A stretch of DNA of 10,390 nt from Treponemataceae bacterium (GTDB taxonomy: Bacteria; Spirochaetota; Spirochaetia; Treponematales; Rectinemataceae), in NCBI GenBank assembly GCA_963677895.2, contig CAXXGJ010000037.1, forward strand, positions 1-10,390, in the 5' to 3' direction. The notes below the pieces were generated by a model. That model did no database searches. It saw only the letters and a program-made list of their open reading frames with translations, and was not told the DNA's origin. Position 1 is the stretch's first letter. The number at the start of each line of letters is the position of its first letter. Below are positions 2,945-4,830 of this stretch, one piece after another. The translations under genes and the position numbers were made by a program.

Positions 2945-2973
2945 TTTTCTCCCTTCGCATACAATGATACATT
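2945..2973 (+). promoter_or_regulatory. Putative sigma70 promoter for the riboswitch-pruA transcript
   Basis: Extended -10 TG-A-TACATT (2965-2973) with a weak -35 TTTTCT (2945-2950, 17-nt spacer). The predicted +1 near 2980 coincides with the 5' strand of the riboswitch P1. Confidence 0.35.
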
Positions 2974-2978
2974 TCCCT

Positions 2979-3101
2979 TGATGCTCTGAAGCTTATTCCA
3001 CCTAAGGACCCTTCCTTCCACAGGATCGGCTCTATGGGGATAAGCCAATGGGTTCGTCCCGAAAGAGGCGGATCTCCCATGCTTGGAAAGGAGGCTCATC
3101 A
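2979..3101 (+). ncRNA. Moco/Wco (molybdenum/tungsten cofactor) riboswitch-like leader, P3-less form
   Basis: P1: tgatg+ctct (2979-2987) pairs with ggag (3090-3093) and catca (3097-3101). P2: cttattc (2992-2998) pairs with ggataag (3038-3044) and carries the canonical tetraloop receptor CCTAAG (3001-3006)/TATGG (3033-3037). P4: ccaa+tggg (3045-3052) pairs with ccca (3076-3079)+ttgg (3083-3086). P5 is capped by a c-GAAA-g tetraloop (3061-3064). The 3' end CTCCC...TGGAAAGGAG is typical of the Moco RNA motif. Recognised by eye, not by a covariance-model search. Confidence 0.78.
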
Positions 3102-4771
3102 TGCAGGACGGGATTTTTTCTTCACCCTTTCCGCACAACGAACACGTCTACAATTACGCGCCAGATTGTCTCGAAACGGGAGCGCTCGCCCTCGAGCTTT
3201 CGCGCCAGGGATCCAGCACTATCGAGATACCGCTCATAATCGGGGGCGAAGAAATTCGCACTGGGCTCATGGGAGAGATACGTTCGCCCCACAACCATAA
3301 GGCCTTGCTGGCGACCTATCACAAGGCGAATCCCGCGATGGTGGACATGGCGGCCGAAAAAGCGGTCGAAGCCCGGGCCGAATGGAAGAGCATGCCCTGG
3401 CAGGCCAGAGCCGCGATCTTTCTCAAGGCGGCCGATCTTCTGTCCACGCGGTTCCGCCAGAAGCTGAACGCCGCGACAATGCTGGGACAGAGCAAGAACG
3501 TCTATCAGGCGGAAATCGACTCGGCCTGCGAACTGATCGATTTCTTCCGCTTCAATGTTCATTATGCCCGGCAAATCTATGCCATGCAGCCCGAGCATAA
3601 CGGAGAGAGAACATGGAACAGGCTGGAGTACAGGCCCCTCGAGGGCTTTGTCTTCGCCGTGACACCTTTCAACTTCACGTCTATCTGCGGGAATTTGCCG
3701 ACGGCTCCCGCCATAATGGGCAACACGGTCGTCTGGAAGCCGGCAAGCTCCGCGGTGCTCTCCAATTACTATGTAATGGAGCTGCTGAAGGAGGCCGGTC
3801 TGCCCCCCGGGGTGATCAATTTCGTTCCAGGCGACGGGGCTAGCGTCGGCGGGCCAGCCATCGCCAGCAGGCATTTCGCGGGGCTGCACTTCACGGGCTC
3901 CACCTCCACCTTCAACGCGATGTGGGTCGACATAGCGAAAAACCTCGCTGCGAATCGATATAAAGTATACCCCCGCATCGTCGGGGAGACGGGCGGCAAG
4001 AATTTTCTAATCGCCCACGAGGACTGCGATGTCCAGGCTCTGGCGGTGGCGCTGTTCCGTGGCGCGTTCGAGTACCAGGGGCAGAAATGCTCGGCCACGA
4101 GCCGCGCCTATATACCCCGCTCCATCTGGCCAAAGGTCCGGGACAAGCTCGTCGAATTCGCCGAGGCCGCCGCCATGGGCGATGTCGCGGACTTTTCCAC
4201 CTTCATGGGGGCGGTCATCGACAAAAAGGCCTTCAGGAACATCGCTTCCTACATCGACTATGCCAGGGCCAAGCCCGAAGAATACAAATTCCTCGTTGGC
4301 GGCGACTGCGACGACAGCGAAGGCTGGTTCATACCGGCGACCATCATCGAGACAAACAATCCGGCAGGCAAGCTCATGACGGAGGAGATTTTCGGCCCGA
4401 TCCTTACGGTTTACGTCTACGACGGCGACAAGCTCGACGAAACGCTGGCCTTGGTGGACGCCACAAGCCCCTTCGCTCTTACGGGGTCGATATTCGCTAA
4501 CGACAGGAAGGTGATCGAAAAAATGTCGGATGCCCTCTCCGACTGCGCCGGCAACTTCTATATCAACGACAAGTCGACGGGGGCTGTCGTCGGCCAGCAG
4601 CCTTTCGGCGGGGCGAGGGCCTCGGGCACCAACGACAAGGCGGGAAGCGTCTTCAATCTCCTACGCTGGACTTCGGTGAGGACCATCAAGGAAACCTTCC
4701 TGCCGTCTGAGACCTGGGATTACCCACACCAGAGACAGTCGGGATACCGGGAACCCGAGAATATCCGCTGA
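3101..4771 (+). CDS. pruA: L-glutamate gamma-semialdehyde (delta-1-pyrroline-5-carboxylate) dehydrogenase, ALDH4/PruA type
   Basis: ATG 3101 follows AAGGAGG (3088-3094). Family motifs AATMLGQSKNVYQAEIDSACELIDF, RPLEGFV..TPFNFT, FTGST, catalytic ETGGK and FEYQGQKCSA, EEIFGP, and GAVVGQQPFGGARASGTNDKAG. Confidence 0.95.
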   Translation: MQDGIFSSPFPHNEHVYNYAPDCLETGALALELSRQGSSTIEIPLIIGGEEIRTGLMGEIRSPHNHKALLATYHKANPAMVDMAAEKAVEARAEWKSMPWQARAAIFLKAADLLSTRFRQKLNAATMLGQSKNVYQAEIDSACELIDFFRFNVHYARQIYAMQPEHNGERTWNRLEYRPLEGFVFAVTPFNFTSICGNLPTAPAIMGNTVVWKPASSAVLSNYYVMELLKEAGLPPGVINFVPGDGASVGGPAIASRHFAGLHFTGSTSTFNAMWVDIAKNLAANRYKVYPRIVGETGGKNFLIAHEDCDVQALAVALFRGAFEYQGQKCSATSRAYIPRSIWPKVRDKLVEFAEAAAMGDVADFSTFMGAVIDKKAFRNIASYIDYARAKPEEYKFLVGGDCDDSEGWFIPATIIETNNPAGKLMTEEIFGPILTVYVYDGDKLDETLALVDATSPFALTGSIFANDRKVIEKMSDALSDCAGNFYINDKSTGAVVGQQPFGGARASGTNDKAGSVFNLLRWTSVRTIKETFLPSETWDYPHQRQSGYREPENIR

Positions 4772-4791: not shown

Positions 4792-4830
4792 AAAAAAGGG
4801 GTGACCCGCGAATATATCGCGGGTCGCCCC
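4792..4830 (-). terminator. Rho-independent terminator between convergent pruA and TAXI genes (probably bidirectional)
   Basis: 14-bp stem ggggtgacccgcga (4798-4811) / tcgcgggtcgcccc (4817-4830) with one non-Watson-Crick position and a 5-nt loop. A6 at 4792-4797 gives a U6 tail on the - strand. Confidence 0.85.

Follow-up and report, generated by a model that had tools for sequence, protein, structure and literature searches.

An RF01055 (Moco/Wco-type) riboswitch associated with the cofactor-independent aldehyde dehydrogenase gene pruA in a Treponemataceae bacterium

The 10,390-nt stretch of Treponemataceae DNA analysed here (the window) carries a riboswitch of the molybdenum/tungsten cofactor type (Moco/Wco; Rfam RF01055) directly in front of pruA, the gene of an NAD-dependent aldehyde dehydrogenase (ALDH). 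A riboswitch of this class had been proposed in a preliminary description of the window, and the Rfam check bears this out. According to cmscan of the window, the gap before pruA matches RF01055 at 2972–3109 on the plus strand with 39.4 bits (E = 1.2e-6), the gathering score of the family being 36 bits, and the match covers the full model (positions 1–135). The best reading is that the RNA is a cofactor-sensing OFF switch on PruA as a cofactor-free back-up enzyme, and we consider this probable. The riboswitch class is known and its use in regulation here is new; the association is well supported and the mechanism is moderately supported. The identity, conservation, covariation, gene context and layout of the RNA are direct observations. 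Genomes are labelled G000 (the host genome), G001 and so on, loci by L-numbers and contigs by C-numbers.

The structural parts of the RNA are listed in Table 1. As had been described, P2 holds an intact 11-nt GAAA receptor (CCUAAG 3001–3006 and UAUGG 3033–3037), and the aptamer ends in CUCCC...UGGAAAGGAG. P2 is followed by P4 after a 4-nt linker, the P3 columns being deleted in the Rfam alignment. P1 covers the ribosome-binding site and reaches the A of the start codon: the Shine–Dalgarno (SD) sequence GGAG (3090–3093) lies inside P1, and the pairing extends to A3101. The GAAA tetraloop, previously placed on P5, caps P4 (3061–3064) in the published numbering, and P5 is a small hairpin at 3076–3086. 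The junction nucleotides agree with the Rfam consensus, and the receptor, the GAAA loop, P5 and the AAA junction are all intact. The P1/P2/P4/P5 layout as a whole is supported by comparison of homologues (covariation), but not by the isolated leader, whose minimum free energy (MFE) structure is not the Rfam structure (z −0.43).

The controlled gene was correctly described as a PruA-type ALDH. The product scores 778.6 bits against TIGR01236, for which the equivalog cut-off is 613.6, and the frame is intact. The protein contains the motifs GETGGKN and GQKCSA, which we take to be catalytic. RF01055 usually stands before genes of molybdenum (Mo) or tungsten (W) transport, cofactor synthesis or cofactor use, and at the window locus the gene is pruA instead. 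No Mo/W gene is found downstream on the plus strand in the window, in agreement with the earlier claim that none is co-transcribed.

The link between the RNA and pruA recurs in relatives. A full pruA orthologue is present in 22 of the 61 genomes searched. RF01055 lies directly upstream of pruA in 13 of these 22 relatives (one of these matches scores under the cut-off), and in a fourteenth a purpose-built model detected a copy whose P5 is disrupted. The total is 14/22 in two families, and no RNA was found upstream of the full pruA in the other eight. The genes around the RNA–pruA pair vary among the relatives. Thus, the RNA travels with pruA. A pattern derived from the leaders of these relatives gave 23 matches in 185,579 genomes: 20 before pruA, two before pcd (the gene of L-piperideine-6-carboxylate dehydrogenase) and one before moaA. 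This pattern favours pruA, and roughly half of its 23 matches fall on relatives already counted. None of the 19 pruA loci from other spirochaete families carries the RNA (phylum sample, 151 genomes). A second, lower-GC lineage of 41 genomes around G062 has the RNA before pruA in seven genomes and before pcd in six, twelve genomes together; five more distant genomes with ALDH matches (G242–G246) were left out of this set. As the link occurs in 14/22 relatives, in the pattern matches and in the second lineage, a rearrangement relic of one genome was rejected as an explanation of the association as a whole.

A metagenome sample was collected with a generic RF01055 pattern, not selected for ALDH genes; 80 of its 122 loci were examined and 70 had a first gene. 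The first genes included 23 TupA-like proteins, 10 MoaA, 5 MoeA, 5 ECF-type proteins, 3 molybdopterin oxidoreductases, one [FeFe]-hydrogenase and one ALDH. This single ALDH (1/70) is a RocA-type 1-pyrroline-5-carboxylate (P5C) dehydrogenase, above the cut-off of TIGR01237. The ALDHs found under the RNA belong to three families (PruA, Pcd and RocA-type), all for amino-acid semialdehydes.

Covariation was analysed in 35 ALDH-linked copies. In the top of P1, P4 and P5, 88.9% of the cells are paired, compared with 76.7% after shuffling, and slid controls reach at most 54%. Two-sided changes are found in 75 cells, compared with 28 in the shuffled alignments (0/500 shuffles reach the observed value); counted by pairs, those with a two-sided change (8) do not exceed the shuffles. 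The GAAA tetraloop is invariant (35/35 rows), and the first four P2 pairs are kept in 35, 31, 34 and 34 of the 35 rows, with the register hand-set for four rows. These results indicate that P4, P5 and the top of P1 covary among the homologous leaders, whereas P1 itself shows one-sided changes only.

The window is an entire contig (1–10390) and duplicates positions 167272–177720 of contig C18 of the host genome at 91–92% identity, riboswitch and pruA included; the TRAP transporter is the diverged exception. The window contig may come from a co-binned sister population, and this origin is the probable one. According to a quick LG+G4 tree of PruA, the window clade is placed among RNA-free genes, separate from the main RNA-bearing Treponematales clade, and the tree shows several losses of the RNA. 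The hypothesis that the RNA-bearing pruA genes of these two clades arose once was rejected (approximately unbiased test, p = 1.2e-4, with the groups chosen after viewing the tree).

Repeated loss of the RNA fits an alternative in which the association of the class is real and the window carries a damaged relic of the RNA. A homologous 124-nt platform is common to the closest relatives (G001, G002 and G017), and both host copies are without 113 nt of it. If this deletion had removed the expression platform, pruA would be translated weakly and constitutively. The Rfam scores of the two pruA-linked host copies (39.4 and 36.4 bits) are barely over the cut-off, and both computed folds of the window copy are closed. 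However, because of the deletion the real SD and AUG fall inside P1, and what is left is a 9-bp P1 over the SD and the AUG, as in most other pruA copies. The deletion is common to two loci just 91% identical, and the receptor, the tetraloop and the junction nucleotides have stayed intact. A low score is also seen in relatives with the long platform (G002, 39.3; G001, 32.1). A damaged relic is regarded as quite unlikely.

The neighbours of the RNA-linked ALDH genes bear on the ligand. One cluster (G063) contains aor, RNA-pruA, RNA-tupA, moeA, moaC and mog. A second (G215) contains moeA-moaA-moaC-mog and RNA-pcd-pruA, and a third (G236) contains RNA-pruA, RNA-fdh, RNA-porin-modABC and fdhD. RNA-ALDH genes also adjoin modABC in G061, moeA-moaA in G237 and G238, a salvage operon in G019, xdhC/mobA in G023, yqeC-yqeB in G007 and G026, and modAB in G011. 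In the second lineage, an aldehyde oxidoreductase (AOR)-family gene is present in all 12 RNA-positive genomes. Sixteen genomes of this lineage keep pcd and/or pruA without the RNA, and only one of these has an AOR gene. In the families of the window, co-occurrence with AOR is a weak test, as set out below.

The preliminary description had also offered the possibility that the scaffold was repurposed for a new ligand, one of proline, ornithine, lysine or glutamate catabolism in the form considered here. The targets all have semialdehyde or cyclic-imine substrates, and a subtype with C-GAAA-G loop closure and an A at the P4 base is recognisable in the Treponematales pruA copies; its pattern gives ALDH genes in 22 of 23 matches. 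However, each feature of the subtype also occurs before tupA, fdh, salvage genes or moaA, and the ALDH copies of the second lineage are often without them. When 70 RNAs were compared by eye, no core nucleotide was exclusive to the ALDH-linked copies, and the CUCUGAAG variant of the window also stands before AOR genes in G210, G211 and G215. An altered-ligand variant was rejected through these diagnostic nucleotides. The consensus junction, the clustering with cofactor genes and the absence of the RNA from the 19 other spirochaete pruA loci also speak against a new ligand, and an OFF layout is a poor fit for a substrate sensor. The repurposed scaffold thus found no support and is very unlikely. 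The RNA on the ALDH genes probably still senses a metal-pterin, and an altered ligand is unlikely.

The missing P3 had been taken as a sign of tungsten. In the available text of PMC2408646, presence of P3 correlates with Mo and its absence with W. This rule fails in the lineage of the window, where P3 is present in 4/4 tupA and 2/2 AOR-operon alignments shown; the RocA-linked copy also has P3. The window copy lacks P3 like the tungsten cofactor (Tuco) subclass, but P3 absence does not track tungsten genes in this lineage. In these spirochaetes, P3 is present in tupA and AOR-operon copies (L045, L052, L057, L136, L084 and L086) and missing from pruA and salvage copies, the reverse of the published Mo/W rule. 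The host genome has AOR-family and Mo-type enzyme families together. The tungsten assignment from the missing P3 was therefore rejected for this lineage. Since the tupA and AOR-operon copies carry P3, the metal (W or Mo) is not readable from the fold, and the breakdown of the rule is a caution against such assignments.

The direction of control was approached through the layout of 51 selected leaders; five rows that the script had misplaced gave the same class when read by eye. A start codon no more than 14 nt from the P1 3' strand is seen in 12/15 pruA, 4/6 pcd, 11/11 tupA and 5/5 salvage leaders, and in 0/14 AOR operons. The SD is within P1 in most ALDH genes, in all uptake genes tested and in 0/14 AOR operons. 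According to the available text of PMC2408646, E. coli moaA has the SD-in-P1 layout and is repressed by the cofactor. As the ALDH leaders share their layout with the uptake genes and with moaA, the OFF direction is indicated. In the long platforms of G001 and G002, formation of P1 releases a strand, which then pairs with the first codons, and opening is calculated to cost 11.5–13.3 kcal/mol in the bound-like state vs 7.5–7.8 kcal/mol, again OFF. The long platform of G017 gave no computed switch.

For the window leader, with P2 and P4 fixed, the structure with P1 formed has −41.0 kcal/mol and that with the site open −35.9 kcal/mol. The unconstrained fold (−48.8 kcal/mol) also buries the SD, through the CU-rich P2 loop. 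Thus, the calculation does not show the window copy opening. Free folding of the window leader was rejected as a route to the aptamer or to the direction, as the aptamer was not obtained and the direction was not fixed. In four other leaders (L133, L137, L210 and L138), the SD of a short upstream open reading frame is buried, and the frame ends at or just before the real start, which suggests control by translational coupling.

For the ligand, the OFF direction and a pterin-dependent enzyme covering the same reaction, we infer the following mechanism. A metal-pyranopterin cofactor, in its W or Mo form, would bind the pruA leader. On binding, the GAAA loop of P4 would dock in the P2 receptor, the junction would close and P1 would form. 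P1 would then hide the SD and the A of the start codon, and PruA would remain untranslated. When the cofactor is scarce, P1 would not be held and the NAD-dependent, cofactor-free PruA would be made. PruA would then oxidise the glutamate semialdehyde, derived from ornithine by RocD, that is otherwise handled by a pterin-dependent aldehyde oxidoreductase. Such isozyme switching is of the metE/metH type. A back-up shut off by the cofactor was the first option of the preliminary description. It fits the conservation, the covariation, the cofactor-gene clusters, the joint loss with AOR in the second lineage, the three ALDH families and the SD-in-P1 layout, while its tungsten enzyme oxidising glutamate semialdehyde is a proposed component.

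The enzyme content of the host is consistent with a need for such a back-up. The host genome (92.8% complete) has three AOR-family, five xanthine-oxidase-family and one DMSO-reductase-family gene, nine pterin-enzyme genes in all, and tupA, modA, moaA, moaC, moeA and mog were not found in it. Cofactor supply is therefore likely to be variable. A third RF01055 copy of the host (L063:4775–9599, contig C2) stands before an ABC binding protein, an Oxidored_molyb lipoprotein and a permease. This lipoprotein occurs in 11/61 genomes, 10 of them without MoaC, and its presence mostly where MoaC is missing points to cofactor import. As judged from its gene content, the L063 locus is a candidate importer of ready-made cofactor, and the host probably imports the cofactor; no paper on bacterial uptake of finished cofactor was found in the literature search. 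A cell that relies on outside cofactor would have a clear use for a cofactor-free back-up. RocD was found in the host as a source of glutamate semialdehyde from ornithine, and proline dehydrogenase and arginase were not found in the genome at its present completeness. The sole xdhC and mobA matches of the host lie on contig C35 (GC 0.68), and C39 has a GC of 0.33, the main contigs being at about 0.57; C35 and C39 may be contaminants.

The best candidate for the pterin-dependent partner is seen in other genomes. An AOR clade of about 720 aa adjoins RNA-pruA in G063 and G237 and bears its own RNA in the second lineage. It is present in 11/14 RNA-positive and 3/8 RNA-negative relatives, with a background of 29/61. 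As a tentative extension, less likely to be true than false, this AOR/WOR clade might be a pterin-dependent glutamate- or aminoadipate-semialdehyde:ferredoxin oxidoreductase, and thus an anaerobic step new to the breakdown of ornithine, proline and lysine. It might be turned on by the riboswitch class that turns PruA, RocA and Pcd off. In the genus of the host, where genes of cofactor synthesis were not found, the cofactor might be scavenged from neighbours, so that community supply would choose between ferredoxin- and NAD-linked oxidation.

Several points weigh against the back-up switch. The window itself has no adjoining Mo/W gene, and the one-sided changes of P1 are accompanied by a mismatch in 11/35 rows. 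Both computed folds of the window copy close the ribosome site (12–17 kcal/mol to open), and the unconstrained MFE of the leader is 7–10 kcal/mol below the aptamer fold. AOR is near-universal in the families of the window (32/36 and 6/6), so that its presence in 14/14 RNA-positive vs 5/8 RNA-negative relatives is a weak contrast, and in those five relatives clear AORs coexist with an RNA-free pruA. Of the 16 RNA-negative genomes of the second lineage, 12 form one clade. The 720-aa AOR clade was not found in the host genome, G017 or G033; in the host, the partner would then be one of the three other AORs or a Mo hydroxylase. The three host AORs are nearest P. furiosus AOR in searches of the PDB, which indicate no substrate. 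In the literature found, there is no evidence that any pterin enzyme oxidises glutamate or aminoadipate semialdehyde. The founding paper of RF01055 (PMC2408646) gives genetic evidence alone for the ligand and, in its available text, shows no direct Moco or Wco binding to any RF01055 RNA.

Some of these points could also be accommodated if the RNA senses the cofactor and PruA is no isozyme back-up. The switch would then serve a broader rerouting (NADH vs ferredoxin, or ornithine and lysine oxidation shut when pterin routes are open), or it would be an ON switch in the clade of the window. The RNA also stands before formate dehydrogenase subunits, [FeFe]-hydrogenase and other genes, and PruA and Pcd are usually substrate-specific. 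The lack of a match to the 720-aa clade in the host and the long platform of G017 without a computed switch also favour such a role, as does the computed SD–AUG accessibility of the window copy, which is not lower with the aptamer enforced (0.47 vs 0.31). However, every ALDH found under the RNA is a semialdehyde dehydrogenase, and AOR-family enzymes catalyse this type of reaction. The RNA and AOR were lost together in the second lineage, and the layout puts the ALDH genes with the uptake genes, apart from the AOR operons. Rerouting or an ON switch is thus considered rather unlikely, and the OFF switch on a cofactor-free back-up is kept as the probable function.

The window has the gene order phoU-phoB-phoR, a 195-nt gap, pruA, a converging TRAP transporter with a GntR regulator, and a divergent acetolactate-synthase-like gene. 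The −10-like hexamer before the RNA is TATAAT in the second host copy and in G001; the window hexamer is absent from the sites listed by a consensus promoter scan. A terminator had been described after pruA. The hairpin is present, but its U-tract is on the minus strand, so it belongs to the converging TRAP operon; it may also stop pruA transcripts.

Table 1. Features of the pruA leader and gene in the window (ALDH, aldehyde dehydrogenase; SD, Shine–Dalgarno sequence)
Feature	Position	Strand	Remarks
Promoter-like −10 hexamer TACAAT, predicted from sequence	2960..2965	+	~7 nt upstream of RNA
Moco/Wco aptamer RF01055, P3-less	2972..3109	+	39.4 bits; covariation in 35 ALDH-linked copies
P1 5' strand	2979..2987	+	partners 3090-3093 (SD GGAG) and 3097-3101 (to A of AUG)
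P2 with 11-nt GAAA receptor	2991..3045	+	Rfam alignment and row-wise pairing
CU-rich tract in P2 loop	3009-3019	+	alternative pairing with SD region possible
P4 capped by GAAA tetraloop 3061-3064	3050..3075	+	4-nt linker after P2, no P3
P5 hairpin and AAA junction returning to P1	3076..3089	+	CG/GC swap in 4/35 rows
SD GGAGG and start codon	3090..3103	+	joined to aptamer through 113-nt deletion relative to G001 and G002
pruA, 556 aa, NAD-dependent L-glutamate gamma-semialdehyde (P5C) dehydrogenase	ATG 3101-4771	+	TIGR01236
14-bp hairpin with U-tract on minus strand	4798..4830	-	z −6.65; TRAP operon terminator

Other targets of the class were noted during the comparison. An RF01055-like RNA with a terminator-sized leader precedes the [FeFe]-hydrogenase gene at L243, an enzyme likewise pterin-free. 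The five metagenome copies (5/70) before ECF-type (PF09819) membrane components (L258, L282, L311, L313 and L316) may belong to cofactor transporters. In the second lineage, the RNA stands before genes of Asp-rich lipoproteins; next come genes of a TonB-dependent receptor, an ABC-type membrane protein and a TiaS-like protein (L203, L204, L207, L208, L209, L212 and L218). These genes may form a second system of cofactor uptake. G236 and G061 have two split formate dehydrogenase alpha subunits each, every one with its own RF01055 copy (L228:7338–10019 and 16513–19191, L153 and L154); the split point may be a selenocysteine codon. In family f32 (L164, L168, L171 and L177), the RNA precedes a small CXXCH lipoprotein, and other copies are on TonB receptors and fdh.

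No paper on control of an ALDH by RF01055 was found in a literature search that covered few subscription papers. No ALDH term occurs in the supplement of Regulski et al. 2008 (PMC2408646) or the supplements of Sun et al. 2013 (PMC3766115), and the available text of the reviews PMC7266159 and PMC9971707 has no such target. As far as their available text goes, pruA lies outside the regulons described in PMC2408646, PMC3766115 and PMC11725836. The nearest known RNA is the Moco/Tuco leader of E. coli moaABCDE (PMC2408646, available text), which has the same fold, receptor, tetraloop, junction nucleotides and SD inside P1. In contrast to its targets, PruA needs, makes and transports no pterin cofactor, and the Mo/W rule for P3 given with that leader does not fit the lineage of the window. 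The Tuco riboswitches of Eubacterium limosum are also P3-less RF01055 RNAs, with several kinds of platform and a regulon of wor1 (a W enzyme), tup and further genes; in the available text of PMC11725836, the non-W targets are iron transporters and focA, none of them a cofactor-free enzyme for a reaction of the same type.

Precedents for a W enzyme in place of a dedicated aldehyde-oxidising one, and for W-enzyme activity on C5 semialdehydes, are given in the review PMC12096430: A. aromaticum AOR replaces a dedicated phenylacetaldehyde-oxidising enzyme, and P. furiosus FOR likely oxidises glutaric semialdehyde. The available text of that account involves no riboswitch and names neither glutamate nor aminoadipate semialdehyde. 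The gene associations found here predict amino-acid semialdehydes as a substrate class of orphan AOR/WOR enzymes. The host, which seemingly imports finished cofactor, would be a clean system for finding which form is sensed (Mo or W, with or without nucleotide).

The closest parallel in regulatory logic is that of the cobalamin riboswitches, which sit on the B12-independent isozymes metE and nrdAB. A category 'Isozymes of B12-dependent enzymes' is given in the available text of PMC3766115. In the cobalamin case the paired isozymes are proven, whereas for pruA the pterin-dependent partner is a proposed one. In both, a cofactor-sensing RNA would shut off the cofactor-free alternative. If this is true, RF01055 would switch between cofactor-dependent and cofactor-free enzymes, as is known mainly for B12 riboswitches.

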